Part shown: piece by piece, positions 2 through 48,623 of the stretch | How the letters are laid out: every line of letters begins with the position of its first letter | How positions within the stretch are numbered: position 1 is the first letter of the stretch | Assembly: GCA_050331175.1 (NCBI GenBank) | Contig: JBHJHC010000021.1 | Location: 7,206-71,205 of the forward strand | Length of the DNA stretch: 64,000 nt | Reading direction: 5' to 3' | From: Rubrobacteraceae bacterium | GTDB lineage: Bacteria; Actinomycetota; Rubrobacteria; Rubrobacterales; Rubrobacteraceae | Program-made: the position numbers and the translations under genes | Notes under the pieces: model-generated | The model's input: the letters and a program-made list of their open reading frames with translations, nothing else | Database searches by the model: none | What the model was told of the DNA's origin: nothing

Positions 2-841
2 TCCTGGCAGCTAAAGGGCAGCTATCCAAAGATCCTGGACGACCCGGAGAAAGGCGAAGAAGCCCGAAAGCTCTTCACGGAATCCCAGGCCCTGCTCGAC
101 CGGGTAATAGAAGAGAAGTGGCTCACGGCCCGCGCCGTCCTCGGCCTCTTCCCCGCGAGCCGGCTGCCGAACGATTCCGTCGAAGTCTATACAGACGAAT
201 CGCGCAAAGCGGTGCTCGCGCAACTCCACTTCCTCCGCCAGCAGAAGCAGAAGCCACCGGGCCGCCCGAACCAATCCCTCGCTGACTTCATCGCCCCGAA
301 GAGCACCGGATTGGAAGACCACATCGGTCTCTTCGCGGTTACCGCCGGCATCGGGGCGGACGAGATAGCGCGCCGCTTCGAGGAGGAGAACGACGTCTAC
401 AACGCGATTATGGTAAAGGCACTCGCCGACCGGCTCGCCGAAGCCTTCGCCGAGCTGCTGCACCAGCGGGTCCGCAAGGAGTTCTGGGGCTACGCGGCGG
501 ACGAAAGCCTCTCTAACGAGAGCCTGATCCGGGAGGAGTACCGGGGCATCCGTCCCGCCCCCGGCTACCCGGCCTGCCCGGAACATACAGAGAAGCGCAC
601 GATCTGGAACCTGCTCGAGGTGGAGAAAAACGCCGGCATCTCCCTTACCGAAAGCTGCGCCATGAACCCCGGCGCGGCGGTCAGCGGCTACTACTTCTCC
701 CACCCGGACTCCCGCTACTTCGGCGTCTCCGAGATCGGGCGCGACCAGGTAAGAGACTATGCGGAGCGCAAAGGTATGCCCCTGGAGAAAGCCGAGAAGT
801 GGCTCTCCCCAAACTTGAGCTACGACCCCGAACGCGATTAG
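2..841 (+). CDS. metH: Cobalamin-dependent methionine synthase MetH, C-terminal AdoMet-reactivation domain (5' end outside window)
   Basis: The frame is open from the window edge. The translation SWQLKGSYPKILDDPEKGEEARKLF..AVLGLFPA..LRQQ..GYPACPEHTEK..AVSGYYFSHPDSRYFGV matches conserved MetH activation-domain blocks. Confidence 0.9.
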   Translation, partial: SWQLKGSYPKILDDPEKGEEARKLFTESQALLDRVIEEKWLTARAVLGLFPASRLPNDSVEVYTDESRKAVLAQLHFLRQQKQKPPGRPNQSLADFIAPKSTGLEDHIGLFAVTAGIGADEIARRFEEENDVYNAIMVKALADRLAEAFAELLHQRVRKEFWGYAADESLSNESLIREEYRGIRPAPGYPACPEHTEKRTIWNLLEVEKNAGISLTESCAMNPGAAVSGYYFSHPDSRYFGVSEIGRDQVRDYAERKGMPLEKAEKWLSPNLSYDPERD

Positions 842-8919: not shown

Positions 8920-8979
8920 ATATGCTCCCTTCGGCCGTGATGCGACGTATCAGGGTACGGAGAACTACTTCGCCACTGT

Positions 8980-14414: not shown

Positions 14415-14700
14415 TTGCTCGGCGTTCCAGCCTTTTCCCCGGGGCAGTCGCTCCTTATGGAGTTACGATCACGCCCCAGCAGGAAACCCATGGCAATCTC
14501 AAACGACGGCTTCTCCAACGGGTTTCAGTGTAGTAGACCCGCGCGCCCAAGGGAAAATGCCACTATCCCTCGGCTGTTCGTCTGCACCCGTACACATTGA
14601 GTGCAACTCAGCCTCGACTCGGCAGACCGGGACGAATCGCAGTTCGAGGATCCGAACCGCTTCGACAGCTTCGGCCCCGGCCCTCACTGTTGGACTATCT
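14415..14700 (+). pseudogene. Possible cytochrome P450 C-terminal relic
   Basis: The plus-frame translation ..ADRDESQFEDPNRFDSFGPGPHCW resembles the P450 NRD..F.dPdrFD...FG.G.H.C.G heme-loop region. It is shortened, interrupted by a stop at 14598-14600, and truncated by the alpha-galactosidase gene end. Confidence 0.35.
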
Positions 14701-17905: not shown

Positions 17906-17916
17906 ACCGTTTCCTT

Positions 17917-19880: not shown

Positions 19881-19988
19881 TGTTCCTCTTTCTGCTCAGC
19901 CGGCTCGTCGTCGAAAGTGTAGAAGATGATGTAGCGTCCGTCCTCTTTCGTCTGGCATTCTTTCTGCAAGCCACTCCTCTCAGGTAAA

Positions 19989-20014
19989 GCGCCCGCCCCC
20001 GCGCGGACGGGCGC
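19989..20014 (-). terminator. Candidate GC-rich hairpin terminator after the symporter gene
   Basis: On the minus strand, GCGCCCGTCCGCGCGGGGGCGGGCGC is followed by TTTAC. The U-tract is short, so this is weak. Confidence 0.35.
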
Positions 20015-20023
20015 CCAGACAGT

Positions 20024-21619
20024 TTAGAAGTAGTAGATCACGATTGCGGCCGTCACGACAAGTAGCGCTACAGACCAGTAGCGGTAGTTCCAGTACCAGG
20101 GCTTTCCGCGAAGCTCCCGGGAGTCTTCCCGCAGCAACTCTACCGACCAGGTGTACCTTTCCATCTGCTCTCTCGACGGAGCCGCGGTAGCCAGGCTCGC
20201 CACAACTAGGACGGCGACGTTGAAGATGGTGAGCGCGGTGGCCGCGTACAGGAACTGTATCTCGAAGAGCTGTAGCGACGGTACCTGGGTCAGGAAGAAC
20301 CCGACTATTCCGATGGGCAGGCCTATGATCAGGGTGATAAAGGCTCCTGCGGGACTGGAGCGTTTCCAGAATAGACCGACCAGCGAGATAGCCAGGGCCG
20401 GTGGAACGGTAAACGAGACGATGGCCTGCAGGTAGGTCCACAGGGTCTCGAAGCGTGAGATCTGGGGTGCCCAAACCATCGCCACCACCAACAAGACCAC
20501 CGTCGCTATGCGACCCGCCACTACCAGCGTCCGTTGCTCGGCATCAGGATTAATGGTGCTCACGAAATCCATCGTAATGATCGTCGAAGCCGAGTTGAGG
20601 ATCGAGTCCACGGACGACATGATGGCCGCCACTAATGCGGCCAGCACCAGACCCCGGAATCCTATCGGCAACAGGTCGAAGGCGAGCGTCGGCCACACCG
20701 CGTCCGGGTTTTCAAGGTCGGGATACAGAACGTTCGCCGCGACCGCGGGCAGGATGATGATGAATAGCAGAGACAGCTTGAGCGCACCCCCGGCCAGAGA
20801 TCCCATGCGACCGTGATCCAGGTTCTTCGAACCTAGCGTACGCTGCACGACGTACTGGTTTATGCAGAAGTACCAGATAGAGAGCAACATCACCCCCGTT
20901 ATGAGCCCCGGCCAGGGGATGACGGGGTCAGACGCAGGTTGTATGAGGCTGAACGCCCTGTCGGGCGCCGCCGCCTCGACCTGCTCCCAGGAGTCTATCC
21001 TCCCGAACACGAAGAACGTGATTATGGTGGAGCCTATGATGAGAACCACGGCCTGGATGGCGTCGGTGATCACCACAGCGGCGAGACCTCCCAGAACCGT
21101 ATATACACCCGCTACTATCGCCAGCACCGCGATAGCCTGCCACAGTTGCACGCTAGGATAGAGTACCTGGATTACCAGGGAACCAGCGTAAAGCGCGGCT
21201 GCCAGGTCGATAAATACGTTGGCGAAAATCAAGAACACCGAGAAAACGTATCGGGAACGGCGATCATACCGCCGCTCAAGATACTCCGGCGTCGTATACA
21301 CGCCAGAACGTAGATAGAACGGCAGGAAAAACACGAGAAAGAACATCAAGGCTATCGCGCCGGTCCACTCGTAGTTGTAGCCCTGCGCGATGCCCGTGTC
21401 ATAGCCCGCACCCGACAACCCGACGATCGAAGCGCCAGACTGATTGGAGGCGAAGAGCGAAAGTCCCACCAGAGGCCAGATGAAGTTGCGCCCGCCGAGG
21501 AAGTACCCTTCCGCGGTGTCGTTGCCCTTCGAACCGAGCCATATACCGATCGCTATGGTAATGGCCAGGTACGCGATTACGATGAATATGTCTATAAAGG
21601 TTATCTGAAAATCAGGCAC
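20024..21619 (-). CDS. Sodium:solute symporter (SSS/SGLT family), copy 1
   Basis: Polytopic membrane protein and a paralogue of 36662-38245. I chose the GTG at 21619 (GGAGGG 7 nt upstream) because the paralogue also starts V-P-D. The ORF track start is the TTG at 21649. Confidence 0.85.
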   Translation of the reverse strand: MPDFQITFIDIFIVIAYLAITIAIGIWLGSKGNDTAEGYFLGGRNFIWPLVGLSLFASNQSGASIVGLSGAGYDTGIAQGYNYEWTGAIALMFFLVFFLPFYLRSGVYTTPEYLERRYDRRSRYVFSVFLIFANVFIDLAAALYAGSLVIQVLYPSVQLWQAIAVLAIVAGVYTVLGGLAAVVITDAIQAVVLIIGSTIITFFVFGRIDSWEQVEAAAPDRAFSLIQPASDPVIPWPGLITGVMLLSIWYFCINQYVVQRTLGSKNLDHGRMGSLAGGALKLSLLFIIILPAVAANVLYPDLENPDAVWPTLAFDLLPIGFRGLVLAALVAAIMSSVDSILNSASTIITMDFVSTINPDAEQRTLVVAGRIATVVLLVVAMVWAPQISRFETLWTYLQAIVSFTVPPALAISLVGLFWKRSSPAGAFITLIIGLPIGIVGFFLTQVPSLQLFEIQFLYAATALTIFNVAVLVVASLATAAPSREQMERYTWSVELLREDSRELRGKPWYWNYRYWSVALLVVTAAIVIYYF

Positions 21620-21680
21620 GGCTTTGCCCTCCTGCCCGAGGGACAACAACCTCCGGAACAGTCGTTACTCCAAGCTTCAC
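21612..21680 (-). other. Candidate 22-codon upstream ORF ending inside the symporter start region
   Basis: AAAGGAGGG-5 nt-GTG AAG CTT ... CGT GCC TGA. The TGA overlaps codons 2-3 of the symporter. Expression is untested. Confidence 0.25.
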
Positions 21681-21743
21681 GATCGCCCTCCTTTCTCGGC
21701 GGCCTTCACCCCTGAAAGCCTGCTACATGTTGCAAGTTGAACA

Positions 21744-21772
21744 ATACTAACAATGATTCAAACTTAAATCAA
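21744..21772 (-). promoter_or_regulatory. Candidate sigma-70-type promoter TTGATT-17-TAGTAT in an AT-rich island
   Basis: Minus-strand hexamers at 21772-21767 and 21749-21744 with a 17-nt spacer. It sits immediately after the GH42 stop and about 125 nt upstream of the symporter start. Confidence 0.4.
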
Positions 21773-23832
21773 CAGATTTTATTGTTGTATTGTGGATTTT
21801 TAGGTGATACTGGTTTATCTTCGGGGATCGTTTCTTCGAGGACCGCTACGCCCCGTGGCTCGAGGGTTAGCCGCCCGGCGTGCGAATCACCGGTCAGCAG
21901 GTCTTTAGAGGCGACATCCAGGGGCAGCTGGACCTCTTCGTGGTTGTGGTTGAGCAGGAAGAGGAAGGATCTCCCGCCGGCTTTGCGTCGCACGGCCTCT
22001 ATACCAGGGGGTGTTTTTGGCGGGGTTCTCACGCCGGCTGCGTCGCACGCCTCCGAGACGAGTTGAGCCGTGTACGCCTCTTCCGGGCGGGTTCCGAGAT
22101 AGTAAGCGTAGCCCGCGCCGAACTCGTGGCGGGTTGCGGCTGGTATTCCGGCGCGAAAGTCGTTCTCGTAAGTGGCGAGAGGCTCGGCGCCTTCGAGGTG
22201 GATCAAATCCCCCCACAGGCTGCAGTCGTAAACGCCACCCTCGTTGGTGACCACCCGGTTTGCCTCACCGGCGGCGAGGGGTGAAAAATCTTCTACGCGA
22301 AGTCCCAACATCTCTCGAAACGGCGCCGGGTAGCCACCGAGCCGTACGTGATCTCTCTCGTCCACGATGCCGGAGAAGAAAGACATGAGTAAGTATCCTC
22401 CCTCAGATACGAACCTCCTCAGGTTCTCCGCGACCGCGTCCGAAACGAGGTAGAGGTGCGGCGCGAGGACGAGCTTGTATTTTGAAAGCTCCGAGCCCGG
22501 ATGCGCGAAGTCCACCGGCACGTTCGATTCGAAGAGCGGCTTGTAAAAAGAGTAGAGGCCGTCGAGCATCCTCACGGCGGCGGAGGGTTTGGAGTCGAGC
22601 TCCAGCGCCCACCAGTTCTCCCAGTCGAGCAGTATGGCGACCTCGGCTTCTCCGCCGGCGCCGGGTAGCGCGTCCAACCGGGCCAACTCCGCGCCGAGCC
22701 GTTTCACCTCTTGCCAGCTCCGGGACTGTTCCGGTTCTCCGTGGGGAACCATCGCGCTGTGGAACTTCTCCGCCCCGGCCTTTGAGGCGCGCCACTGGAA
22801 GAACATGATGCCGTCGGCGCCCCGGGCCACCGCCTGGTGGCTCCAGAGCCGCATCTGGCCGGGTTTCTTGGGCGCGTTGCGCTCGCGCCAGTTTACCCGG
22901 ACGGTGGTCTGCTCCATAAGCACCCAGGGCTTTCCTCCCCCGAGGGACCGCATCAAATCCCGGTTCATGGCGGCCCCGATGTGCGCCTCCGGATCCGAGG
23001 GGTCCGGGTAAGAGTCGTCTGATACGACGTCCTCGTGGGCGGCCCACCTCCAGTAATCCAGCGGCTTGAAAAACCCCATGAAGTTCGTCGTAATCGGGAC
23101 TTCCGGCGTCGCCTCGCGCAGGATTCCCTTCTCCATCAGAAAGCACTCCAACAGGGCGTCGGACGAGAAGCGGCGGAAATCCAGCTGCTGGGTCGGGTTG
23201 GCGAAGGTCGGGGCCGGGCGAGGGGGAAAGACCTCCGCCCACTCGGAATACTGCTGGCTCCAGAAAGCCGTGCCCCAGGCCTCGTTGAGCCCAGCGAGGT
23301 CCCCGTAGCGGTCCTTCAGCCACCCACGAAAGTGGGCTGCCGATGCGTCGCAGTAGCACTCGGAGACGTGGCAGCCGTACTCGTTGTTTACGTGCCACAT
23401 GGCGAGCGCCGGGTGCTCGCCGTAGCGGCCTGCAATGCGCCGAACCAGCTCCGCCGCCCGGTCCCGGTAGCCCGCGCTGCTCGGGCAGTAGTGTTGGCGG
23501 GCGCCGGGGTACAGGGTTACGCCCTCCCGCGTAACCGGCAGGCTTTCGGGATGGATGCGGGCGAGCCAGGGCGGCGGAGAAGCGGTGGCGGTCGCCAGAT
23601 CCACCATCACACCGTTCCCGTAGAGCAGGTCTATGATCCGGTCGAGCCAGCCGAAGTCGTACTCACCGGGCCGGGGCTCCAGCTTCGCCCACGAGAAGAT
23701 CCCCAAAGACACCAGGTTCACCCCGGCATCTCGCATGAGCCGCACGTCCTCCCGCCAGACCTCCTCCGGCCATTGCTCGGGGTTGTAATCCCCCCCGTAA
23801 AGAACGTGCGGAACCTTTTCGAGAAGCCTCAT
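21769..23832 (-). CDS. Beta-galactosidase, GH42
   Basis: 687 aa. The N-terminus YGGDYNPEQWPEEVWREDVRLMRDAGVNLVSLGIFSWAKLEP and the block HVNNEYG are typical GH42 sequences. Confidence 0.9.
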   Translation of the reverse strand: MRLLEKVPHVLYGGDYNPEQWPEEVWREDVRLMRDAGVNLVSLGIFSWAKLEPRPGEYDFGWLDRIIDLLYGNGVMVDLATATASPPPWLARIHPESLPVTREGVTLYPGARQHYCPSSAGYRDRAAELVRRIAGRYGEHPALAMWHVNNEYGCHVSECYCDASAAHFRGWLKDRYGDLAGLNEAWGTAFWSQQYSEWAEVFPPRPAPTFANPTQQLDFRRFSSDALLECFLMEKGILREATPEVPITTNFMGFFKPLDYWRWAAHEDVVSDDSYPDPSDPEAHIGAAMNRDLMRSLGGGKPWVLMEQTTVRVNWRERNAPKKPGQMRLWSHQAVARGADGIMFFQWRASKAGAEKFHSAMVPHGEPEQSRSWQEVKRLGAELARLDALPGAGGEAEVAILLDWENWWALELDSKPSAAVRMLDGLYSFYKPLFESNVPVDFAHPGSELSKYKLVLAPHLYLVSDAVAENLRRFVSEGGYLLMSFFSGIVDERDHVRLGGYPAPFREMLGLRVEDFSPLAAGEANRVVTNEGGVYDCSLWGDLIHLEGAEPLATYENDFRAGIPAATRHEFGAGYAYYLGTRPEEAYTAQLVSEACDAAGVRTPPKTPPGIEAVRRKAGGRSFLFLLNHNHEEVQLPLDVASKDLLTGDSHAGRLTLEPRGVAVLEETIPEDKPVSPKNPQYNNKIC

Positions 23833-32639: not shown

Positions 32640-34103
32640 TTAAGAGCCCAGTTTCTCCAGGATGAGCTGGCGCGCCCGGCCGCCATCGGCCCCGCCGCGG
32701 GTCGCCTTCATAACCTGGCCGATGAGGAAGCCGATCACCTTCTGGTCCCCACCCCGGACACGGTCCGCCTCCTCGGGGTTGGCCACGAGAACCTGATCCA
32801 CGACCGCCGATAGCTCGTCGCCTTTCATCTGCGCCAACCCTTCGCGCTCGACCACGGCGGCCGGAGACTCACCGCTGGTAAAGATCCGGTCCAGAACATC
32901 CTTCGCGGTAGCCCGCGAGATGGTCCCGTCGCCAACGAGCCCGAGCAACTCCGCCATCTGTTCCGGGGCGACCCGGGACTCGGAGACCTCCATTCCGGCC
33001 TCGTTTAGCCGGGCCTGGAGCTCGACCGTAATCCAGTTGGCGGCCTGCTTCGAGTCCACCCCGGAACCGCCGGCAACCGCTTCGTAGTAAGCGGCGAGGT
33101 CGCGATCCGCCGTCAGCACGCCGGCGTCGTACCCGGAGAGGCCGTACTGCTCCACGAAGCGGGCCCGCATCTCCTCCGGCAACTCGGGCAAACGGTTCTT
33201 AATCTCGCGAACCCACGCTTCGGTAAGCTCCAGCGGCAGCAGGTCCGGCTCCGGGAAGTACCGGTAGTCGTGGGCGTACTCCTTGCTGCGAAGCTCGTGA
33301 ACCTCGTCGGTCTCCGGGTCATAGTGGAGCGTGGTCTGCGTTACGCGCCCGCCGCCTTCCAGAATGTCCCGCTGGCGCTCCAGCTCCCTCGTGAGCCCCC
33401 GCTCGACAAAACGGAAAGAGTTCATGTTCTTCAACTCGGTCTTGGTGCCGAAAGAGCCGTCGGGGTTGCGGAGGCTGACGTTGGCGTCGCAGCGGAGCTG
33501 GCCCTTCTCCATGTCCGCCTCGGAAACGCCGATGGCCCGCAGGATCTCTTTGAGGTGGTTGGCCGTGGCGCGGGCGGCCTCCGGCGAGGTAATGTCCGGC
33601 TCGGTGACGATCTCCATCAGGGGCGTACCGCCCCGGTTATAGTCCACGAGCGAGCCGACCGAACCGTGCATCCGGCCCGATTCTCCGACGTGGACGTTCT
33701 TGGCGGCGTCCTCTTCGAGGTGCAGCCGGGTAATGCCGACCCGGACAGTCTCATCCCCGAGCGGCACGTCCAGGTGGCCGCCGGTACAAATCGGCAGGTC
33801 GAACTGGGAGATCTGGTACCCCTTCGGGAGGTCGGGGTAGAAGTAGTTCTTGCGCGCGAAAACCGCCCGGGGAGCTACGTCGCAGTTGAGCGCGAGACCC
33901 GCCATGACGCCGAGCTCCACGGCCTTCTCGTTGGCGACCGGCAGCGCGCCGGGGTGTCCGAGGCAGACCGGGCAAGTGTGCGTATTCGGCTCCTCACCAT
34001 AGGCTACCCGGCAACCACAGAACATCTTGGTCGTCGTCGCCAGGTGGACGTGAAACTCCAGCCCGATAACCGCCCGGTAGGTTCGTTTCTCTTGAACTTC
34101 CAA
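32640..34103 (-). CDS. gatB: Asp-tRNA(Asn)/Glu-tRNA(Gln) amidotransferase subunit B
   Basis: YRAVIGLEFHVHLATTTKMFCGC...NYFYPDLPKGYQISQ, plus a C-terminal YqeY-like tail. I prefer the TTG at 34103 (GAGGTG upstream). The ATG at 34145 lies inside a promoter-like palindrome and the track start at 34367 is over-extended. Confidence 0.9.
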   Translation of the reverse strand: MEVQEKRTYRAVIGLEFHVHLATTTKMFCGCRVAYGEEPNTHTCPVCLGHPGALPVANEKAVELGVMAGLALNCDVAPRAVFARKNYFYPDLPKGYQISQFDLPICTGGHLDVPLGDETVRVGITRLHLEEDAAKNVHVGESGRMHGSVGSLVDYNRGGTPLMEIVTEPDITSPEAARATANHLKEILRAIGVSEADMEKGQLRCDANVSLRNPDGSFGTKTELKNMNSFRFVERGLTRELERQRDILEGGGRVTQTTLHYDPETDEVHELRSKEYAHDYRYFPEPDLLPLELTEAWVREIKNRLPELPEEMRARFVEQYGLSGYDAGVLTADRDLAAYYEAVAGGSGVDSKQAANWITVELQARLNEAGMEVSESRVAPEQMAELLGLVGDGTISRATAKDVLDRIFTSGESPAAVVEREGLAQMKGDELSAVVDQVLVANPEEADRVRGGDQKVIGFLIGQVMKATRGGADGGRARQLILEKLGS

Positions 34104-34142
34104 GTAAGTGCACCTCGCGTTTTCACCTGCTGTGACAGAGTT

Positions 34143-34173
34143 CATTCTAGCATTGTGGGTGAATGCTAGAATG
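34143..34173. promoter_or_regulatory. Perfect 12-bp inverted repeat carrying two back-to-back extended -10-like elements (TGCTAGAAT on each strand)
   Basis: CATTCTAGCATT-gtgggtg-AATGCTAGAATG. It lies in the divergent gatB / FHA-GGDEF intergenic region. Confidence 0.4.
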
Positions 34174-34238
34174 GGTCTCATCATCCTGGAAAGGTAGCAA
34201 AGGAGGAGGACATCTCGGAGGGTGGGCAGCCGCACCTG

Positions 34239-35048
34239 GTGGTGCTGCAAGGGCCGAGCTTCGGTGACATCTACTATCTTGAGGGCGAGCCGCTCGTTCT
34301 CGGCAGCAATCCTTTCCAGGCAGACATCGTGGTTCGGGACGTGGAGGTCGAACCGGAACACGTTCAACTCTACAGTGGCGGACCAGGCTACGTCGTTAAG
34401 GATCTCAGTACCGGGAAGCCAACTTTCATAAACGGAGATCGTGTGGCAGAGCCTCTCCCCGTGCGCTCTGGAGACCGTATTTTCGTCGGAAATAGCATTC
34501 TGGAGTTTGTGGACCAGGACCCCCTAAAAGAGCAGTTCCACAAGAAAATACAACGGATGATCAACCAGGACTACCTGACAGGCCTGCTCGCCAAAAACCG
34601 CTTTGATGAGAGGTTCGAGCAAACCCTGGAAATCTGTCAGGAGAACGAGAGTATATTGAGCGTCTTGATGGCCGACATAGACAACCTCAAGAAGATAAAC
34701 GACTCCTACGGACACCTGCTGGGCGAGTTCGTGGTGGGCGAGATCGGGCGCATCATCCACGATTGTCTGGAATCCGAAGAGTTCTTCGCGAGCCGCTTTG
34801 GAGGCGATGAGTACCAGGCGATCCTGCCCGGCCTTACCAAAGACGAAGCCACCGAAATCGCCGAGGAGATCCGCCACAGCATCGAAGAGTTTACGTTCGA
34901 GCACGAAGGCGCTTACGCGAACCCGACTCTTTCCCTGGGCGTCGCCTCCTATCCCGAGGACGGGGACAACCGGGACAAGCTCACCCATTCCGCCGACAAA
35001 GCTCTCTACCGGGCGAAGCACGCCGGCGGCAACTCGGTTTCTCAATAG
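34239..35048 (+). CDS. FHA-domain diguanylate cyclase (GGDEF domain with a GGDEY variant)
   Basis: The N-terminus is an FHA domain (LVLGSNP.ADIVV.D..V...H..L....GYVVKDLSTGKPTFING). The C-terminus is a GGDEF domain (DYLTGL..R, ADIDNLKKINDSYGH, RFGGDEYQAIL). The exact start is uncertain: a strong AGGAGGAGG lies at 34201-34209. Confidence 0.8.
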   Translation: MVLQGPSFGDIYYLEGEPLVLGSNPFQADIVVRDVEVEPEHVQLYSGGPGYVVKDLSTGKPTFINGDRVAEPLPVRSGDRIFVGNSILEFVDQDPLKEQFHKKIQRMINQDYLTGLLAKNRFDERFEQTLEICQENESILSVLMADIDNLKKINDSYGHLLGEFVVGEIGRIIHDCLESEEFFASRFGGDEYQAILPGLTKDEATEIAEEIRHSIEEFTFEHEGAYANPTLSLGVASYPEDGDNRDKLTHSADKALYRAKHAGGNSVSQ

Positions 35049-39642: not shown

Positions 39643-41085
39643 TCACGGCTTCATCGTGAACTCGAAGTCCGCGACCTCCTCTACGCCGCGGGCGGCGCGC
39701 AGGAGCAGGGGTTCGGTGAAGTGGTCGCTCATGAGCTGGACGCCCACGGGCAGGCCTTGCGAAAGGCCACCGGGGACGCTGATCGCCGGTATTCCGGCCA
39801 GGTTGGCCGGGATGGAGCAGATGTCCTGGTAGTACATGGCGAGCGGGTCGTCGACCTTGTCCCCGATCTCGAACGCCACCGTGGGCGAAATTGGGGAGAG
39901 CAGCACGTCGTAGCGGCTAAAGGCCGAACGGAAGTCCTCGACGATCCGGGTGCGGACCTTCTGAGCCTGGGCGTAGTAGGCCTCGTAGTAACCGCTGGAG
40001 AGGGCGTAGGTGCCGAGCATGATCCTGCGTTTCGCCTCGTCCCCAAAACCCTCTTCCCGCGTCTTTCGGTACATCTCGTGTACCCCGTCCGCCGGAACCC
40101 GCAGCCCGTAGCGCACGCCGTCGAAGCGGGCCAGGTTGGAGGAAACTTCTGCCGGGGCGATGATGTAGTAGGCTGGCAGCGCGTACTCCTGGTGTGGAAG
40201 CTGTGCCTCTCCTACCTCGGCCCCCGCACGCTCCAGTTCCCGGGCGACCTTCTCGACCACCGCGCGTACCCCCGGCTCGATCCCCTCTTTCATCAGCTCG
40301 CCAACCACCCCCACGCGGAGGCCGGCGACGCCGTCTTCGAGCCCTGACAGATAGTCCGGCACCTCGACGTTGGCGCTGGTGGAGTCCTGGGGATCATGGC
40401 CGGCGATCGCCTGCAATAACAGCGCCGCGTCGCGCACGTCGCGGGTCATGGGGCCGACCTGATCGAGGGAAGACGCGAAGGCGATCAGGCCGTGCCGCGA
40501 AACCCGTCCGTAGGTTGGCTTGAGCCCGACGATACCGCACAACGCCGCCGGCTGGCGCACCGAACCGCCGGTGTCCGTGCCCAGCGACCACCAGCCCTCC
40601 CCGGCGGCCACCGCGGCCGCCGAACCGCCGGAAGAGCCACCCGGCACCCGATCCAGATCCCAGGGGTTCCTCGCCGGGCCGTAAGCCGAGTTCTCCGTCG
40701 AGGAACCCATCGCGAACTCGTCGCAGTTGGCTTTGCCAACCATGATGATGTCTTCCCCGAAGTTCTGGAGCGCCGAAGCGTCGTAGAGTGGCTCGAACCC
40801 TTCCAGAATCTTTGAGCCGCACGTAGTCCGCACGCCGCGGGTAGAAAGAACGTCCTTTACGGCCAGCGGTACGCACTCCCAGAGCTTCACACCTCCGTTT
40901 CGCAGCCGGGCATCTACCTTCTCCGCCCGCCGGACGGCGATCTCGGGCGTCGTCGTGACGAAGGCGTTGACTTCACTTTCAACCGCTTCGACCCGCTCGT
41001 TGGCGGCCCCGGCGGCCTCGCGGGCGGAGATCTCCCCGGCCTCTATGCGCTGCGCCAGCTCGTAGGCTGTGAGGTCCAGCATCAA
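39643..41085 (-). CDS. gatA: Glu-tRNA(Gln)/Asp-tRNA(Asn) amidotransferase subunit A
   Basis: Contains the amidase signature GGSSGGSAAAVAAG and has full-length GatA similarity. Confidence 0.9.
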   Translation of the reverse strand: MMLDLTAYELAQRIEAGEISAREAAGAANERVEAVESEVNAFVTTTPEIAVRRAEKVDARLRNGGVKLWECVPLAVKDVLSTRGVRTTCGSKILEGFEPLYDASALQNFGEDIIMVGKANCDEFAMGSSTENSAYGPARNPWDLDRVPGGSSGGSAAAVAAGEGWWSLGTDTGGSVRQPAALCGIVGLKPTYGRVSRHGLIAFASSLDQVGPMTRDVRDAALLLQAIAGHDPQDSTSANVEVPDYLSGLEDGVAGLRVGVVGELMKEGIEPGVRAVVEKVARELERAGAEVGEAQLPHQEYALPAYYIIAPAEVSSNLARFDGVRYGLRVPADGVHEMYRKTREEGFGDEAKRRIMLGTYALSSGYYEAYYAQAQKVRTRIVEDFRSAFSRYDVLLSPISPTVAFEIGDKVDDPLAMYYQDICSIPANLAGIPAISVPGGLSQGLPVGVQLMSDHFTEPLLLRAARGVEEVADFEFTMKP

Positions 41086-41363
41086 TCTATCCTCGGCACG
41101 GCGAATAGGTCGTCCGCGGGCTCCGGGGCCACGGATAATGCTTCTTCCCGGGGCAATTCCTCGCGCGGCTCATCCGGGCGCAGCACGTTCGTCAGGCTGA
41201 GCGGGTTTGCCGTCGGCGGCACCCCGGCGAGGTCCAGCTCCCCGATCTTATCTATGCTCTCCAGAATGGCGCCCAGCTGCTCCCCCATTCTCGCGACCTC
41301 CTCGTCCGTCAAACCCAGCCGCGCCAGGTTTGCGACGTGGCGCACCTGCTCTTCGGATATCAT
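41082..41363 (-). CDS. gatC: Amidotransferase subunit C
   Basis: 93 aa, MISEEQVRHVANLARLGLTDEE... The stop overlaps the gatA start by 4 nt. Confidence 0.85.
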   Translation of the reverse strand: MISEEQVRHVANLARLGLTDEEVARMGEQLGAILESIDKIGELDLAGVPPTANPLSLTNVLRPDEPREELPREEALSVAPEPADDLFAVPRID

Positions 41364-41464
41364 CTATATGCCTCCATGCTCCGGATACTAACTTCCCTAT
41401 CTTAGCGTACCGTTAGCCGGTGGACCGCTGGTGGACCGGGCCAGCATCTACTCCGGGGCAGAGG

Positions 41465-42622
41465 CTATGAGCCGTTTAGCGCCTCCTCGGCGAGGCGGGC
41501 GCCTTCGACCATGTTGACGAGCTTCTCGTAGGAGACTTCCCAACTGCGGGTCCGAAGGCCGCAGTCGGTGTTTACCTCGATTCGCTCCGGGCCCAGCACC
41601 GCCGCCGCATAGAGGATACGGTCGCGCACCAGCTCCGGTGGTTCGACGAAATCCGTGTGGATGTCTATAACCCCGAGCCCGATCTTCCCCTCCCACGGGC
41701 TCTCCCGGAAGTTGCCGAGTATAGAGTAGCCGGGCCGATCCTCGCCCTTCGTACCGGTCTCCAGCGAGTCGCGGTTGGAAAACTCCAGCTGCAACTCATA
41801 GCAATTTTCAAGCTCTTCGATGTGGGGAAAGAGACAACCATAATCCGAAAAGCACACGTGCATGGAGCAGCGGGCCTCTATCCCCTCCCGGGTTGCGTTG
41901 AAGGTCTCGACGAGGAGCGGTACTTCGTTGGGGCGGGTGGTGGCGGCAGGCTCGTCGATCTGGACCCACCCGGCCCCGGCCTCGACTATCCCGGTCACGT
42001 TAGGTCTCACCAAGTCGCGGGCCGCATCCACCCCGAATTGCCGGCGCGCCGCTATCCGGCGCCCCGTCGAAGCTCCGAGTAAACTTTCCTCCCCAACGTA
42101 GTATTCGTCGTAGGACCAATCCATGATGGTATACGCTCCGGTGAAAGGAACCTTTATTGCCCGGTCGGTGTGCCCGCTGACGAACTGGTACTCTTCCAGA
42201 TCGTAGGCCGTTTCGACGAGTGGTCTCCCGACCACGGCGGCCTTGGTGTAGTACTTGTTGTCCCAGGAGCGGACCGTGCCCCGGGCCTCGAAACCCTTTG
42301 CATGCTTTACGGCATGGTCGTACATCTCGCTCCGGCGCTGCTCTCCATCGTAGACTACGTCGAGGCCGCTGCTCTCCAGGAGCCGGAGTCCGTAGAGGGC
42401 GGCGTAGTCCTGAATCCTCGCCTTTTCTGAGTCCGAGAACCCCGTGCCCTTCGAGAGCGTCTGTGCAAGCTCCTCCACGCCGGCTATTCCGAGCCGAGAG
42501 CCCCACTTGCGGGCGTACTCGACATCGGACTCGTCCACGGGCCGGCCAACGATGGGCTTCACGCGCCACCCGGGCTTGGCGAGGCTCCCGATCTCACGAG
42601 TAACGAACCTGACTTCAACCAT
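41465..42622 (-). CDS. Cobalamin-independent methionine synthase, catalytic (MetE C-terminal-like, Meth_synt_2) subunit
   Basis: Zn-site motifs are conserved: MHVCFSD (His-x-Cys), LQLEFSNRD (Glu) and VNTDCGLRTRSWE (Cys). Also contains the substrate block IDEPAA. Confidence 0.75.
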   Translation of the reverse strand: MVEVRFVTREIGSLAKPGWRVKPIVGRPVDESDVEYARKWGSRLGIAGVEELAQTLSKGTGFSDSEKARIQDYAALYGLRLLESSGLDVVYDGEQRRSEMYDHAVKHAKGFEARGTVRSWDNKYYTKAAVVGRPLVETAYDLEEYQFVSGHTDRAIKVPFTGAYTIMDWSYDEYYVGEESLLGASTGRRIAARRQFGVDAARDLVRPNVTGIVEAGAGWVQIDEPAATTRPNEVPLLVETFNATREGIEARCSMHVCFSDYGCLFPHIEELENCYELQLEFSNRDSLETGTKGEDRPGYSILGNFRESPWEGKIGLGVIDIHTDFVEPPELVRDRILYAAAVLGPERIEVNTDCGLRTRSWEVSYEKLVNMVEGARLAEEALNGS

Positions 42623-42623
42623 G

Positions 42624-43553
42624 CTACTGCTCCTCCTTCAGGATGCGGGCCGCCGCGCCGAGCCGCAGAACCTTCTCCCGGGCGATCCTCTCCGGTACGA
42701 ACTGCAGATCCCCGTTCGGCGCCAGATGCAAATCCCCCTCTAGTTCTTCCAGAAGTTGTCGGCCAAACTCCGCAACTATTTCGGGCTCCTCCAGCAAGGA
42801 GTTGCGGGCATCCACCACTCCCGCGAGCAGGATCTTTGGAAACGGGCGCGGCAAGGAAGCTATGTCCGTCGCGTAGAAATCCACCCCGATGGCCGCCACG
42901 TTCAGCCCCACTAACTCCCCGAGCAACCCTCCCGCATCACCGAATGGGAGCTGGAGCGCGAGTGGCACGGGGCTGTTCAACGAGCCCAGCGCCTCGCCGA
43001 GCCCGAAGATGTCGCCAGCCTCGCCATAGAGGGCGGTCTCCTGTAAGACGACCATAGCGCAACCGTTGCCGGCGAGCCATCTTATCTGGGGTCCGATCAC
43101 CGTTTCGGCCACGACGCGCGGCTCGAGTTTGTCTGTCGCAACCTGTGCCAGGGTGTACGGTGAAGGCAGCGTCGCAACCCATCTTTCGCGGGGCAAGTCG
43201 CCAATTCGGAAAAGAGGTTCTCCCACAGGCTCGACCAACCTCGGTGTCTCCGTTTCGGCCGCTGGCGCCCGGAAAAACGTATTCGTGTTCAGATAGCGCG
43301 TCAAAGGACCAGGATGCAGGCCCTGCGTCCCCGTAGAAAAGGGACGGAAGAGGTCCTGCCAGTTCAAGAGGCCGTCGGAGAGGTAGTCGAAACCCGCCTC
43401 ACGCTGAACTTCGAGGAAACCGTGCAGGTCTTCATCCCGCTGCTTCTCTACCACTTGCCCGGCGGCGCGCCCCCGATCCAGGTCGCGGGTGGCCTGCACC
43501 AACTCCTCCGTGCGGGCGTAAATGCCGGGCGCATAGGTTCTTATCTCCGGCAA
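42624..43553 (-). CDS. MetE N-terminal-like (Meth_synt_1) subunit
   Basis: AGFDYLSDG, RYLNTNTFFRAP (compare WFDTNYHYIVPE) and VVLQETAL (compare IQIDEPAL). It has no Zn ligands. Its stop is 1 nt before the catalytic-subunit start. Confidence 0.65.
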   Translation of the reverse strand: MPEIRTYAPGIYARTEELVQATRDLDRGRAAGQVVEKQRDEDLHGFLEVQREAGFDYLSDGLLNWQDLFRPFSTGTQGLHPGPLTRYLNTNTFFRAPAAETETPRLVEPVGEPLFRIGDLPRERWVATLPSPYTLAQVATDKLEPRVVAETVIGPQIRWLAGNGCAMVVLQETALYGEAGDIFGLGEALGSLNSPVPLALQLPFGDAGGLLGELVGLNVAAIGVDFYATDIASLPRPFPKILLAGVVDARNSLLEEPEIVAEFGRQLLEELEGDLHLAPNGDLQFVPERIAREKVLRLGAAARILKEEQ

Positions 43554-43596
43554 CCTCTTCTCCTCTCTCCGATTCGGAAATCAGCTATCGTGCTCC

Positions 43597-44658
43597 TCAA
43601 TCCCAGACCAGGGTACCGGCGTTCTGGTACTCGGTGACGCGGGTCTCGAAGAAGTTCTTCTCCTTGGCGAGGTCCATCGTCTCGCTCATCCAGGGGAACG
43701 GGTTGCGGGAGCCGTACTGGGCCGGGAGCCCGATGCGGCCGAGCCGCCGGTCGGCGATGAACTGGACGTACTCGCGAAACAGCCCGGCGTTGAGGCCGAG
43801 GACGCCGTCGGGCAGGCAATCGCTGGCGTAGGCGACCTCGTACTCGACGGATTGCCGGATCATCGCCACGATCTCGTCCTTGAGTTCCGGGGTCCAGGCT
43901 TCGGGGTTCTCTTCCTTGATGGAGTTGATGAGGTCTATCCCGAAGTTCAGGTGAACCGTCTCGTCGCGCAGGATGTACTGGAACTGCTCCCCGATGCCGG
44001 TCATCCGGTTCTGGCGGTGGAAGGAGAGGATCATGACGAACCCGGAGTAGAAGAAGATGCCCTCCATGATCACGTAGAACCCTACCAGGTTCTTGATGAA
44101 CTCCTGGATGCCCTCCGTGGTCCGGGTTGAGAAATCCGGCCGCAGGACAGACGCCGTTAGCGACATTACGAACTCGTCTTTGCCCCGGATGGAGTCGACC
44201 TCGTTGTACATGTTGAAGACCTCCCGGCCGTCGAGGCCGAGCGACTCCACTATGTAGTGAAAGGTGTGGGTGTGGATGGCTTCCTCGAAGGCCTGGCGCA
44301 AGAGGTACTGCCGGGCTTCGGGGTTGGTGATGTGCTCGAAGATGGAGAGCACGATGTTGTTGCCTACGAGGCTCTCGCCGGTCGAGAAGAACCCCAGGTT
44401 CCGCATTATGACGAGCCGCTCCCCCTCGGTAAGCCGGTCGGAATGCCAGAGCGAGATGTCGCCCTGCATCGGGACCTCGGAGGGCATCCAGTTGTTGGCG
44501 CAGCCGTTGAGGTAGTGCTCCCAGGCCCACTCGTACTTCAGGGGCCAGAGCTGGTTCACGTCCACGGCCCGGCAGTTGAGCAGGCGCTTGTCCTCGGCGT
44601 TGATCCGCTTCGCCAGGTCGTAGGGTTGTTCGCTACCGGTCGTGCAGCATTGGGACAT
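43597..44658 (-). CDS. nrdB: Ribonucleotide reductase small subunit, class Ic (Chlamydia-type R2c)
   Basis: 353 aa. It is nearly collinear with my recollection of C. trachomatis R2: [92 protein letters not shown]. Phe133 (TTT, 44262-44260) occupies the radical-Tyr position and Glu95 replaces the usual Asp ligand. Confidence 0.9.
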
Positions 44659-44672
44659 GGATGGATTCCTTT

Positions 44673-47480
44673 CTACTGGCAGGCTTCGCACTCGGGCTCG
44701 TCGGGGGAACACGTCTCCCCCCGAACCGCTTCTTTGGCAACGACCGGCATCTCCCCGGTGTCCACCCGGCCGGAGGCGGAACGGCTCTTCATCCAGCGGG
44801 GCTGGATGCCGCGCTTGTTTACGTCCATGCTGGACTTCTCGACGTTCGTGGCGCCGCGGGACCGCAGGTAGTAGGTGGTCTTGAGGCCCTTGCGCCAGGC
44901 GTTCAGGTACATCTCGGAGAGGAGCTTGCCGCTCGGTTGGGCGAGGTAGAGGTTCAGAGACTGGCCCATGTCGATCCACTTCTGCCGCCGCCCGGCGCAG
45001 TCTATGAGCCAGCCGGGGTCTATCTCGAACGCCGTCAGGTAGAGCTTCTTGAGGTCTTCGGGGACCCGCCCTATCTCCTGCACCGAGCCGTCGAAGTGCT
45101 TGAGGTCCTCGATCATTTCCTCGTCCCAAAGCCCGCGCTTTTTGAGGTTCCGCACCAGATAGGGGTTGACGACCGTGAACTCCCCGGAGAGGTTGGATTT
45201 GACGAACAGGTTGGAGTACGCCGGCTCGATGGACTGGTAGGATCCCGCGATGTTGGAGATGGTGGCCGTCGGCGCTATCGCCATAACGTTGCTGTTCCTC
45301 ATACCATGCTCGGCCAGGACCTCCCGGACCGGCTGCCAGTCGAGCGTCGTTGAGCTGTCCATCTCGACCTCGACCCCGCGCTCTGCTTCGAGTAGCGCCA
45401 CCGTGTCTATCGGTAGAAGGCCGCGGCTCCACTTGGAACCCTCGTAGCTCGAATAGGCACCCCGGGTGGCGGCGAGGTTCGCCGAGGCCATTATGGCGTG
45501 GTAGGAGATCAGCTCCATCGAATAGTCGGCGAACCGGACGGCCTCTTCGCTCGCGTAGCTGATGCGCTGCTCGAAAAGGGCGTCCTGAAAACCCATGATC
45601 CCGAGCCCGACCGGCCGGTGCCGCAGGTTTGCTTCCCGGGCCTCGGGTGTGGGATAGAAGTTGATGTCTACGACGTTGTCCAGCATCCGCACCGCGGTCT
45701 TTATGGTCCCGGAAAGCAACTCCTCGTCCAGTCCGTAGGCGTCGGTGTGGGCGGCGAGGTTTATGGAGGCCAGGTTGCAGACGGCGGTCTCTTCGGGGCT
45801 GGTGTTGAGGAGAATTTCGGTGCAGAGGTTCGAGCTGTGGACGACGCCGGCGTGGTCTTGCGGAGACCGGACGTTGGAAGGGTCCTTGAAGGTGATCCAG
45901 GGGTGCCCCGTTTCGAAGAGCATGGAGAGCATCTTGCGCCACAGCTGCCCGGCCTCGACGCGCTTGTGCTGGCGCAGCCCGCCCTCATCAGCCATCCGCT
46001 CGTACGCAACGTAGCGCTCCTCGAACTTCTTGCCGGAGAGGTCGTGCAGGTCGGGGACTTCGTTTGGTGAGAAGAGCGTCCACTGTCCGTTTTCGATCAC
46101 GCGCTTGATAAAGAGGTCCGGGATCCAGTTGGCCGTGTTCATGTCGGGCGTCCGGCGCCGCTCGTCGCCGGTGTTCTTCCTGAGCTCCAGGAAGTCCTCC
46201 ACGTCCAGATGCCAGGTCTCCACGTAAGAGCACGCCGCGCCCTGTCTCTTTCCCCCCTGATTGACCGCCACCGCCGTATCGTTGACGATCTTGAGGAACG
46301 GAACGACGCCCTGGCTCTCGCCGCCGGTGCCTTTGATGAGGGAGCCCGTCGCCCGGATGTTGGTCCAGTCGTTCCCCAATCCCCCTGCCCACTTGGACAG
46401 CCTGGCGTTGTCCGAGATGGCCTTGAAGATGCCCTCGATGTCGTCGCTAACGGTGGTGAGGTAGCAAGAGGAGAGCTGGGGATGTAGCGTGCCGCTGTTG
46501 AAGAGCGTGGGTGTGGCGGAGACGACCCGAAAGTACGAAAGCGCCTCGTAAAACTCTATGGCGCGCGCCTCCCGGTCATCCTCGTTCAGGGCCAGGCCCA
46601 TCGCGACCCGCATCCAGAAGTATTGAGGGCACTCGATCCGGCGTCCACCGGCCTCGATGAGGTAGCGGTCGTAGATGGTCTGGAGGCCGAGATAGGTGAA
46701 GTCCTCGTCCCGCCCCGGTCGCAACGCGGCAGAGAGCTGGTCGAGGTCGAACGCCAGCAGGTCCGGGGAAACTCGTCCGGCCTCTACTCCGGCTCGCAGG
46801 TAGCCGGCGAAGTTTTCGCGGTAGGTCCGGTCGAAGTCTTCTTCGGTTGGCGAACCGTTCCAGGCTTCCCGGTAGATCACCCCGAGCAGCAGCCGGGCGG
46901 CCGCGGTGCCGTAGGCGGGATCCACCTCGATGTGAGACCGGGCGGCCAGGATGGTGGCGCGCCGGATCTGCTGCGGCGTGATGCCGTCGTAGAGCGAGCC
47001 CAGAGCTTCGTCCAGGATGCGCCCCGGGTCCACGGGCTCCAGGTTCCGGCAGGCGGCCTCGATCCTCCGCCGGACGCGCCACGGCTCGAAGACGCTCTCG
47101 CGGCCATCCTCGTGGCGCACGTTTATGGCCGGCCGGGCACCGTCGGCGGGTTCCCCGCGGAACATGCGGGCTTTGTTGTGTTCCTCGCGGTAGACGATAT
47201 ACCTGCGGGCGACCCGGTAGTTGCCGTCCCGCATCAACTGCTCCTCGACGAGGTCCTGGATCTTCTCCACGTCCACCGCGCCACCCGACTCCGGGAGCCG
47301 ATCAACCACCGCGGTCGTGGTGCGTTGTATCTCCTCACCAAGCTCCGGACCCAACCCGGCGCCCTTTGGCAGGCCTTGCTCCGCCCGGAACGCGTTGGCG
47401 ACGGCCGTGGAGATTCTGGCCGTCTCGAAGGCCACGACCCGCCCGTCCCGTTTCCTGACCGATGTTTCTTGTGGGATCAC
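44673..47480 (-). CDS. nrdA: Ribonucleotide reductase large subunit, class I, with tandem N-terminal ATP-cone-like segments
   Basis: [17 protein letters not shown].. and ..[23 protein letters not shown].. are ATP-cone-like. Catalytic blocks are SSCYL, NLCTEI and LMPTA-like, and the C-terminus has the CEAC pair. The GTG at 47480 follows AAAGGGG; the track ORF to 47783 runs into the riboswitch. Confidence 0.9.
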
Positions 47481-47674
47481 CGCTCTACCCCTTTCGCGCC
47501 GCTTTTCTACTGCGGACGGCCGCGGAGACCGGCGAGAAAGATAGGTAGCGCAAAAGAGATTCCGTGCCGGCAGGGTAAACGTCAAGGTGCTGCCACTACC
47601 GGCGACGCTCTTTTGGCGACCAGCCTCTCCCTCGAAGGCTCGAGCCACCCTCCCGCACACCCGTGCGGGCCACC

Positions 47675-47840
47675 GGCAGGTCTTCGGACTCGCAGGCCCT
47701 TCGATCGGAGATCGAACCCTACTCACCGCCGCTTCCCAACCTCGAAAGGCCAGTGCTCCATGGCGGTTTTCGTTCCTGCTCACCGCTGCGGGGCAGTTCC
47801 GGATTTACACCGGATTCCCTCTTGCGACACCGGAACCTGC
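47675..47840 (-). promoter_or_regulatory. Cobalamin (B12) riboswitch aptamer
   Basis: The minus strand reads GCAGGTTCCGGTGTCGCAAGAGGGAATCCGGTGTAAATCCGGAACTGCCCCGCAGCGGTGAGC...GAGCACTGGCC...TTGGGAAGCGGCGG...AGTCCGAAGACCTGCC. The conserved core and the 3' B12-box are present, and P1 closes by GCAGGT/ACCTGC. Confidence 0.85.
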
Positions 47841-47879
47841 GATACTCCCTAGGCTCCGGTGAACCGGCAGATGGTGGAG

Positions 47880-47908
47880 ATTATGTTGCCTGACCGCGGC
47901 GCTGTCAA
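47880..47908 (-). promoter_or_regulatory. Candidate promoter TTGACA-17-CATAAT driving the riboswitch-nrdAB leader
   Basis: Minus-strand -35 at 47908-47903 and -10 at 47885-47880, with a 17-nt spacer. It lies about 35 nt upstream of the aptamer. Confidence 0.5.
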
Positions 47909-47948
47909 CACCGGTCCGGAGAAAAGTCCTGGTAAACGGCGGTCTTTT

Positions 47949-48623
47949 TCAGTCCCCCAGCACCCGGGCGATCGAGATGCCGTCCACGCCCTCCCGGAGC
48001 ACCGGCAGGATCGTGGCGGAGAGCCGGGGATGCCGCGCCAGCCGCTCGTTGAATTCGCGGGTGGCGCGGGCGGATTCGTCTTCGCCGTTCAAAACGGTCC
48101 CGCCCCGGATGGTATTGTCGGCCAGTATCAGGGAGCCGGGCCGGGAGAGTTGCAGGGCGAGATCCAGGTATCGGGGATAGCCGTCTTTCTCCGCGTCGAT
48201 AAAGATGAGGTCGAAGGATTCGGTACCGCCCTCTACCAGCTCCCCGAGCAGGCCGTGGGCGTCCCCGACGAGCACCTCCACGCTGTCTTCCAACCCGGCG
48301 CGTTCGACGTTTGCCCGGGCCACCTCGGCGTGCCGCCCGTCTACTTCGAGGGAGATCAGGCATCCCCCGTCCGGCAGGGCGCGGGCGAGGTGGATGGCGC
48401 TGTAGCCTCCGAGAGTCCCGATCTCCAGGATGCGGCGGGCTCCGGCTATTTCGGCGAGCAGTTGCAGGAGCCTGCCCTGGGTCGGGGAGATGTGGATCTC
48501 CGGCAACCCCGCTTCCCGGGAAGCGCGCAGCGCCGCTTTCAAAGCTTCATCACCCGGCGCGTACAGCTCCTCGACGTACCGGTTAACCTCTCCGACCAGC
48601 TCTTTGAAACTATCCACGGCCAC
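47949..48623 (-). CDS. Class I SAM-dependent O-methyltransferase (caffeoyl-CoA OMT-like, Methyltransf_3)
   Basis: RILEIGTLGGYSAIHLA SAM motif, FDLIFIDAEK and ADN blocks. The GTG at 48617 is an alternative start with better SD spacing. Confidence 0.8.
   Translation of the reverse strand: MAVDSFKELVGEVNRYVEELYAPGDEALKAALRASREAGLPEIHISPTQGRLLQLLAEIAGARRILEIGTLGGYSAIHLARALPDGGCLISLEVDGRHAEVARANVERAGLEDSVEVLVGDAHGLLGELVEGGTESFDLIFIDAEKDGYPRYLDLALQLSRPGSLILADNTIRGGTVLNGEDESARATREFNERLARHPRLSATILPVLREGVDGISIARVLGD

Follow-up and report, generated by a model that had tools for sequence, protein, structure and literature searches.

The window analyzed here, a stretch of 64,000 nucleotides (nt) from a Rubrobacteraceae bacterium with a G+C content of about 63%, carries a cobalamin riboswitch on its minus strand, followed by genes for two B12-independent enzymes: a class I ribonucleotide reductase (RNR), encoded by nrdA and nrdB, and a predicted methionine synthase of the MetE type, split over two genes. 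In the direction of reading, a promoter-like site is followed by the RF00174 aptamer, nrdA, nrdB, a MetE-N-like gene and a MetE-C-like gene, and direct reading of the sequence gave intergenic gaps of 14 nt (nrdA/nrdB), 43 nt (nrdB/MetE-N) and 1 nt (MetE-N/MetE-C). An earlier note on this DNA had described the same order of parts, their positions and these gaps, and each item was found in place. It had also proposed that nrdAB and the split metE stand behind one riboswitch as a single unit; wherever that proposal could be put to a computational test, the outcome supported it, and from these parts we infer co-transcription. The features are listed below, with coordinates given as positions in the window.

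47908..47880, minus strand: sigma-70-type promoter-like site, TTGACA-17 nt-CATAAT, 11 of 12 consensus matches
47883..47658, minus strand: cobalamin riboswitch aptamer RF00174, 99.9 bits over the full model
47657..47481, minus strand: expression platform, 177 nt, from leader alignments and a consensus fold
47480..44673, minus strand: nrdA, class I RNR alpha subunit, 935 amino acids (aa), GTG start, from Pfam and NCBIfam
44658..43597, minus strand: nrdB, predicted class Ic beta subunit, 353 aa, ATG start, from alignment to Chlamydia R2c
43596..43554, minus strand: nrdB/MetE-N spacer, 43 nt, with the Shine-Dalgarno sequence GGAGAAGAGG ahead of TTG, from sequence and fold
43553..42624, minus strand: split-MetE N-like gene, predicted non-catalytic, 309 aa, TTG start, from a family profile and Pfam matches of homologues
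42622..41465, minus strand: predicted split-MetE catalytic component, 385 aa, ATG start, from Meth_synt_2 and zinc motifs
41464..41364, minus strand: 101-nt intergenic region ahead of gatC-gatA, probable 3' end of the unit, with a -10-like TAAGAT for gatC
2..841, plus strand: 3' end of metH, last 279 codons, running off the left window edge, from PRK09490

Enzymes encoded by the unit and their B12-dependent counterparts

The large RNR subunit contains ATP-cone matches (two N-terminal stretches), Ribonuc_red_lgN and Ribonuc_red_lgC, and scored 1415 bits against the NCBIfam equivalog PRK07207, for which the cutoff is 965. The longest open reading frame in the nrdA frame (to 47783) extends into the aptamer; the GTG at 47480 is the predicted start because it aligns with the ATG of a relative. 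NrdB is 72% identical to C. trachomatis R2c (PDB 1SYY, 4D8F) over 337 ungapped residues, with E95, E126, H129 and F133 corresponding to R2c E89, E120, H123 and F127. The radical-site motif EEAIHTHTF aligns with EEAVHTHTF of 1SYY, F133 replacing the radical tyrosine, and the first metal ligand lies in STGESLV, aligned with STAESLV, where a glutamate (E95) stands in place of aspartate. Retention of these four residues therefore places NrdB in class Ic, and the assignment made in the earlier note is correct; class Ic enzymes have a Mn(IV)/Fe(III) cofactor as their radical initiator. The likeness to the chlamydial enzyme does not extend to its control: a B12 riboswitch precedes the class Ic genes in the window as well as in Rubrobacter calidifluminis and Thermobaculum terrenum, and none is known in Chlamydia.

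Two further observations concern these RNR genes. The class Ic NrdB proteins of Chloroflexota, Thermobaculum, Hydrogenedentota, Bdellovibrionales and Oligoflexia all share 78-85% identity with that of Rubrobacter, an unusual uniformity across phyla that points to very strong constraint or frequent transfer. In one related locus (L088, 927-4865) nrdA encodes 1312 aa with Hint_2 and LAGLIDADG matches inside the barrel domain, which indicates that this class Ic alpha subunit carries a putative intein.

The first MetE-like protein, 100% identical to MGF1470939.1, scored only 21 bits with Pfam Meth_synt_1, below cutoff, when scanned as a single sequence. PF08267 is found in its close homologues, and full-length MetE structures are matched over their N-terminal domain by a profile built from the family (E 2e-37). 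The protein lacks the zinc ligands, with PNGDLQF at the position of MetE's PDCGLKT, and its TTG start aligns with ATG in seven relatives, L002 included. The second protein matches Meth_synt_2 with 99.9 bits; its best alignment is to the C-terminal domain of T. maritima MetE, with which its zinc motifs (H-x-C, E and DCGL) and the substrate-site tryptophan line up (segments MHVCFSD, LEFSNRD and TDCGLRTR). Among NCBIfam models, the short 'methionine synthase' entries PRK04326 and PRK01207 come closest, with scores of about 240 bits, and the full-length MetE model gives 91 bits; for every methionine-synthase model in NCBIfam, the protein stays under the curated cutoff. The last part of the MetE-N gene contains the Shine-Dalgarno sequence of the MetE-C gene (GAAGGAGGAG). 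The Meth_synt_2 match of the C part and the family profile of the N part bear out the earlier reading of these genes as a split metE pair.

By these features the two genes are, as predicted from sequence, the split MetE of Price et al. 2021, defined as two adjacent genes of at most 400 aa each that carry the Meth_synt_1 and Meth_synt_2 halves, with a predicted methyl-pterin donor and an operational threshold of at least 200 bits for the catalytic part against P. furiosus PF1269 (PMC7857596). There, split MetE was found mainly in archaea, and in 106 of 107 genomes no other methionine synthase accompanied it (PMC7857596), whereas the pair described here is bacterial, stands beside MetH and is linked to a riboswitch for either B12 or S-adenosylmethionine (SAM). 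Bacterial split MetE was found in the Rubrobacteraceae and in about 60 Gaiellales loci.

MetH itself had been noted at the left edge of the window, and the fragment there, comprising the AdoMet-binding reactivation domain, scored 432 bits against PRK09490 (profile positions 959-1233 of 1234); MetH and split MetE therefore coexist. The last 116 nt of metH (728-843, plus strand) are duplicated 910 nt downstream (1638-1753, plus strand) with 76% identity, and this downstream copy still codes for ...WLSPNLSYDPERD*. Between the copies stands a DUF5615/DUF433 pair, open reading frames 874-1203 and 1221-1613 (both minus strand), which we read as toxin-antitoxin-like; it looks like an insertion at the metH 3' end duplicated or replaced the terminus of the gene. 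The existence in the host of NrdJ, the B12-dependent RNR, is presumed, and our literature search returned nothing usable on NrdJ, RNR or B12 in Rubrobacter.

Riboswitch leader and transcription signals

The promoter-like TTGACA-17-CATAAT is the sole such match on either strand between 40800 and 48200 (7.4 kb), and a transcription start is expected at about 47873. Identical hexamers with identical spacing precede the riboswitch in four relatives (L001, L002, L003 and L083). The aptamer, recognized as a B12 riboswitch in the earlier note, scored 99.9 bits against RF00174 (gathering score 31.5, E 8.7e-24, model positions 1-189 of 189), is of the long form with the peripheral P6 extension, and is the only Rfam element in the whole window in a scan at gathering score. 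Homologous aptamers of 92-106 bits occupy the same position in nine related loci, and the layout of promoter, aptamer and nrdA leader is kept in nine loci with metE and in two without.

The 177-nt expression platform is highly conserved in the leader alignments. A hairpin at 47669-47652 overlaps the 3' end of the aptamer match, and an invariant GCCUUCGAGGGAGAGGC at 47639-47623, common to all seven aligned leaders, is able to pair with aptamer loop L5. The energies of this L5:L13 duplex ranged from -11.5 to -19.8 kcal/mol in six of six sequences, though the L5 sequences differ; pairing that is kept while L5 varies is what an L5-L13 kissing loop in a cobalamin riboswitch should show. Downstream, at 47614-47552, follows a hairpin that varies in sequence and is closed by AAAAGAG/CUCUUUU. 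An anti-Shine-Dalgarno sequence, UCUCU, lies at about 47559-47555, and the nrdA Shine-Dalgarno sequence, AAAGGGG, at 47494-47488, 7 nt ahead of the GTG. In the consensus fold of seven sequences, UCUCU..GCGC pairs with GCG..AGGGG, with compensatory changes in three pairs, and GGGAGAGG of the invariant loop is also able to pair with the UCUCU element. The conserved core of the platform looks mainly translational, acting by occlusion of the Shine-Dalgarno sequence. A terminator scan called no canonical intrinsic terminator in the leader. As a candidate leader terminator we considered the U-run hairpin at 47614-47552 (-30.8 kcal/mol) and rejected it, with a z of -0.63 relative to shuffled sequences and no call by the scan.

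We then examined the signals inside and at the ends of the unit. A simple scan of 40800-48200 gave no minus-strand terminator-like site from the riboswitch to gatC, and a scan restricted to the sigma-70 consensus gave no second promoter-like site in the same interval. The earlier note had pointed to 43554-43596, the nrdB/MetE-N spacer, as the place where a second promoter might lie; the simple scan returned no promoter-like match there. The same spacer had been described as holding a Shine-Dalgarno site (GGAGAGAGGAGAAGAGG-TTG) and neither hairpin nor U-tract, which agrees with a predicted fold no better than that of shuffled sequence (z -0.48). No Rfam match at E<=1 was found from nrdB to gatC (41300-44700), and in the scans of L001, L002 and L003 no promoter or terminator match recurs at the nrdB/metE junction. 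Synonymous divergence over the last 40 nrdB codons was 0.24-0.28 against a gene mean of 0.32; by this weak test divergence is not markedly lowered, which argues against a conserved promoter embedded in the 3' end of nrdB. The four genes thus combine a shared strand, short gaps and the lack of an internal terminator-like site, the usual marks of an operon.

At the downstream end, gatC has its own conserved -10-like element (TAAGAT). In L001, L088, L089 and L090 a convergent Uma2 gene follows MetE-C, so that the unit is bounded there. In the window, transcription may read through from MetE-C into gatCA, because no terminator was called. The Uma2-family gene (194 aa, putative restriction-endonuclease-like) lies between MetE-C and gatC, on the minus strand in each case (L001, 10109-10693; L088, 8109-8693; L089, 8101-8685; L090, 8102-8686), and is absent from the window. 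Farther along the window, gatCA (39643-41363) and gatB (32640-34367) are separated by about 5 kb with a GH32 hydrolase, a sodium:solute symporter and another open reading frame; in L001 only a GGDEF gene lies between them. A galactoside-utilization cluster (GH36, galK, GH42 and a symporter) occupies 14684-23832.

Distribution and origin of the arrangement

Relatives were surveyed by one MetE-N profile scan of 185,579 species genomes, followed by contig look-ups. The earlier note had suggested such a survey of RF00174-nrdAB-metE synteny, and it recovered the order RF00174-nrdA-nrdB-MetE-N-MetE-C in nine further Rubrobacteraceae loci (L001, L002, L003, L015, L082, L088, L089, L090 and L091), giving ten with the window. 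Across these B12-linked loci MetE-N is 69-80% identical to the window protein. The nrdB-metE spacers measured in relatives are 10, 37, 37, 41, 42, 43 and 43 nt, the shortest in L003, and only the Shine-Dalgarno sequence is conserved in them; MetE-N and MetE-C lie 1 nt apart or overlap by 4 nt. In L015 (about 9500-9989) and L091 (5498-5986) nrdB and MetE-N are separated by an inserted gene for a 4HBT (hotdog-fold) thioesterase of 162 aa, which points the same way as its neighbors and in L091 leaves gaps of 8 and 14 nt.

A B12 riboswitch followed by class Ic nrdAB occurs without metE in two loci, in R. calidifluminis (L083, 3820-8200) and in T. terrenum (L085, 4150-8062). In R. calidifluminis the module has truA-O-methyltransferase on one side and rplM-rpsI on the other, and a strong GC-rich hairpin (-36.8 kcal/mol, z -2.7) separates nrdB from rplM-rpsI. 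Conversely, in eight other Rubrobacteraceae loci it is the SAM riboswitch RF00162 that precedes this split metE pair. The element lies directly upstream of the pair in L012 (3076-3197), L013 (3726-3847) and L016 (113-234), and on the same strand some 2-2.5 kb ahead of MetE-N in L004 (7344-7459), L008 (7969-8081) and L017 (4970-5083). In R. taiwanensis (L018, RF00162 at 7952-8062) it is directly followed by a gene for a 622-aa homocysteine-S-methyltransferase/MTHFR fusion (YitJ-like, 8127-9995) that overlaps the MetE-N start by 4 nt, and in L007 (6972-7088) by metK, a phosphoribosyltransferase gene and a 151-aa fragment of the fusion gene (9108-9563), then metE. The SAM riboswitch and MTHFR-fusion context in these sister lineages supports a role of the gene pair as a methionine synthase with a methyl-folate donor.

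No riboswitch was found at L006 and L010, Rubrobacteraceae loci with full 10-kb upstream flanks. The roughly 60 Gaiellales split-metE loci showed no nrdAB in the flanks retrieved (up to 10 kb); an Rfam scan of seven of them returned no match, and nhmmer with B12 and SAM riboswitch profiles added nothing in any locus. In each of the three species-representative genomes with the fusion a single split-metE locus was returned, and the B12-linked copy therefore appears to be the only one, with the incompleteness of metagenome-assembled genomes (MAGs) as a caveat. The Rubrobacter MAG assembly DATDKO01 has two MetE-N loci, L009 (278-1204) and L072 (2820-3287), whose proteins share 72% and 67% identity with that of the window; two split metE copies may exist in some genomes, or this assembly may be a mixed bin.

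A bootstrapped neighbor-joining tree on MetE-N plus MetE-C placed the nrdAB-linked loci in a cluster, with 100% bootstrap for a core of seven, and the SAM-linked loci as basal and paraphyletic. As predicted from these loci, the arrangement is confined to one clade of the Rubrobacteraceae. The fusion looks derived because sister lineages keep SAM-linked metE and because R. calidifluminis and Thermobaculum have the riboswitch-nrdAB module without metE. The most economical reading is that the module came first and that the metE pair moved behind nrdB once, probably losing SAM control and gaining B12 control. We hold it somewhat better than an even bet that this clade rewired its split metE from a SAM-riboswitch regulon to a B12-riboswitch-controlled class Ic nrdAB, yielding one four-gene 'cobalamin-sparing' operon in which one sensor serves two pathways. 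Both the restriction to a clade and the SAM-riboswitch control in sister lineages were absent from the earlier note and were added by this analysis.

Predicted regulation, competing explanations and significance

Together, these data favor a reading in which nrdA, nrdB, metE(N) and metE(C) form one 'B12-sparing' operon with one promoter and one cobalamin riboswitch, to which we assign a probability of about 0.72. Under it, both B12-independent back-ups would probably be switched off together when B12 is available. We infer a ligand response, a switch between loop docking and the anti-Shine-Dalgarno element, and a downstream spread of repression, which may proceed as follows. Without ligand, the invariant loop would hold the anti-Shine-Dalgarno element, and nrdA would be translated. 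With cobalamin bound, L5 would dock on the invariant downstream loop CUUCGAGGGAGAGG and free UCUCU, which could then occlude the nrdA Shine-Dalgarno sequence and stop nrdA translation. The untranslated 6-kb mRNA would be lost by Rho-type polarity, decay or weak termination at the leader hairpin, which would also lower nrdB and the tightly coupled metE genes. With a platform that looks mainly translational, nrdB and the two metE genes would have to be repressed through polarity or coupling. In the absence of B12 all four genes would be on, and the cobalamin-independent enzymes would replace NrdJ and MetH in DNA-precursor and methionine synthesis.

Several points weigh against this operon. Promoters that depart from the sigma-70 consensus are common in Actinobacteria and would escape our scan. 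The U-run leader hairpin is non-canonical, and L015 and L083 lack it. Should regulation act on nrdA translation alone, B12 might control metE only in part, because each downstream gene has its own Shine-Dalgarno sequence and could be translated from surviving mRNA. Bootstrap support for the nrdAB-linked cluster falls to 25-37% once L003 and L015 are included. A tblastn search with NrdA that covered the window and the 91 fetched loci found no nrdJ. Finally, split MetE is a proposal (PMC7857596), and its own proposers still count it with the families proposed earlier.

The first of three alternatives takes up the possibility of partial control: the riboswitch would govern nrdA or nrdAB, and metE would be largely independent of B12, expressed from an unrecognized promoter inside nrdB or from surviving mRNA. 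We consider this unlikely, although it draws on real features of the locus, in that the platform core is an SD-occluding (Shine-Dalgarno-occluding) helix and not a canonical terminator, MetE-N has a strong Shine-Dalgarno sequence of its own, and the promoter scan was limited to sigma-70 consensus sites. Against it, the spacer shrinks to 10 nt in L003, and the spacers are unconserved save for the Shine-Dalgarno sequence; the 3' end of nrdB has no marked excess of synonymous conservation, and no promoter-like match recurs in L001, L002 and L003. The metE pair, moreover, lost its SAM riboswitch on moving and would be left without known control.

The isozyme logic itself would fail if the MetE-like pair were not a methionine synthase, and instead methylated another substrate or used a corrinoid protein like the 'core' Mes enzymes. 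The proposal status of split MetE (PMC7857596), the sub-cutoff single-sequence Pfam score of the N part and the position of the catalytic part under every curated NCBIfam methionine-synthase cutoff leave some opening for this, yet the zinc ligands and substrate-site motifs are kept, an N-domain-type partner is present that the Mes families lack, relatives place the pair behind a SAM riboswitch and, in R. taiwanensis, in overlap with an MTHFR-containing gene predicted to make methyl-tetrahydrofolate, and a corrinoid-dependent enzyme would call for the reverse of repression by B12. We thus give the idea very little credence. We give the least to the remaining alternative, in which the adjacency is a neutral by-product of rearrangement and an unconventional terminator or processing site splits the two halves. 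The locus is indeed prone to rearrangement, with nrdAB followed by rplM-rpsI in R. calidifluminis and with Uma2, thioesterase and other nearby genes that come and go, and actinobacterial terminators often lack U-tracts. Set against this, the order and tight spacing persist over ten loci with MetE-N proteins that have diverged by 20-30%, the spacers have no hairpin, and even the inserted thioesterase gene keeps the orientation and tiny gaps. The single B12-sparing operon therefore remains our preferred reading.

Its components are, as far as sequence comparison goes, of known kinds and follow a known logic, with no new mechanism. Control by B12 riboswitches is textbook knowledge both for metE and for B12-independent RNR genes, normally in separate regulons. 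SAM (S-box) riboswitch control of metE and yitJ is a Firmicutes arrangement, and Bacillus clausii metE has tandem SAM and B12 riboswitches. The sister Rubrobacteraceae resemble the S-box genes in having RF00162 upstream of split metE, or of a yitJ-like gene and then metE; unlike the tandem set-up, the clade of the window has no SAM element, and B12 is the only detectable input, taken from a riboswitch shared with another pathway. The Streptomyces coelicolor nrdABS operon (Borovok et al. 2006, J Bacteriol 188:2512, cited in PMC4991794) has a cobalamin riboswitch in its leader, through which B12 represses this class I RNR operon and adenosylcobalamin-dependent NrdJ takes over; the switch is reported to act on transcription. 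Both systems place an actinobacterial B12 riboswitch ahead of an oxygen-dependent class I RNR, but the Streptomyces operon is class Ia, with the regulator NrdS and without metE, whereas the window unit is predicted to be class Ic, without nrdS and with two metE genes added; and where the Streptomyces switch is reported to be transcriptional, the conserved feature of the window leader is occlusion of the Shine-Dalgarno sequence. Mycobacterial B12 riboswitches, in contrast, are translational OFF switches (bioRxiv 10.1101/2023.04.25.538288), and the switch proposed here matches that behavior. As with metE of Mycobacterium tuberculosis, a B12 riboswitch is linked to a cobalamin-independent methionine synthase where MetH is encoded as well, with B12 repression being predicted for the window; M. 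tuberculosis has a full-length, single-polypeptide MetE with its own riboswitch immediately upstream, whereas the window has a two-gene MetE 3.9 kb downstream of the riboswitch, behind nrdAB.

The earlier note had regarded the combined arrangement as undescribed, and no paper on an nrdAB-metE unit came up in our literature search either. The new elements are the joining of the two classical targets behind one aptamer, the class Ic RNR and the bacterial split MetE as B12-riboswitch targets, and the exchange of SAM for B12 within one family. The arrangement predicts that four genes of two pathways respond to one ligand. It offers regulation-based, independent support for split MetE as a cobalamin-independent methionine synthase and for its coexistence with MetH in bacteria, and it extends B12 riboswitch control to class Ic RNRs in Rubrobacter and Thermobaculum, beyond the clade with the fusion. 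Within one family, the same gene pair is found in three control states, under a SAM riboswitch, under a B12 riboswitch by operon fusion and with none detected, which makes it useful for the study of riboswitch-regulon evolution. If the reading is true, evidence from regulation would for the first time mark bacterial split MetE as a genuine B12-independent back-up to MetH, and the locus would be a natural case in which a riboswitch input was swapped from SAM to B12 through operon fusion, without the gain of a new aptamer.

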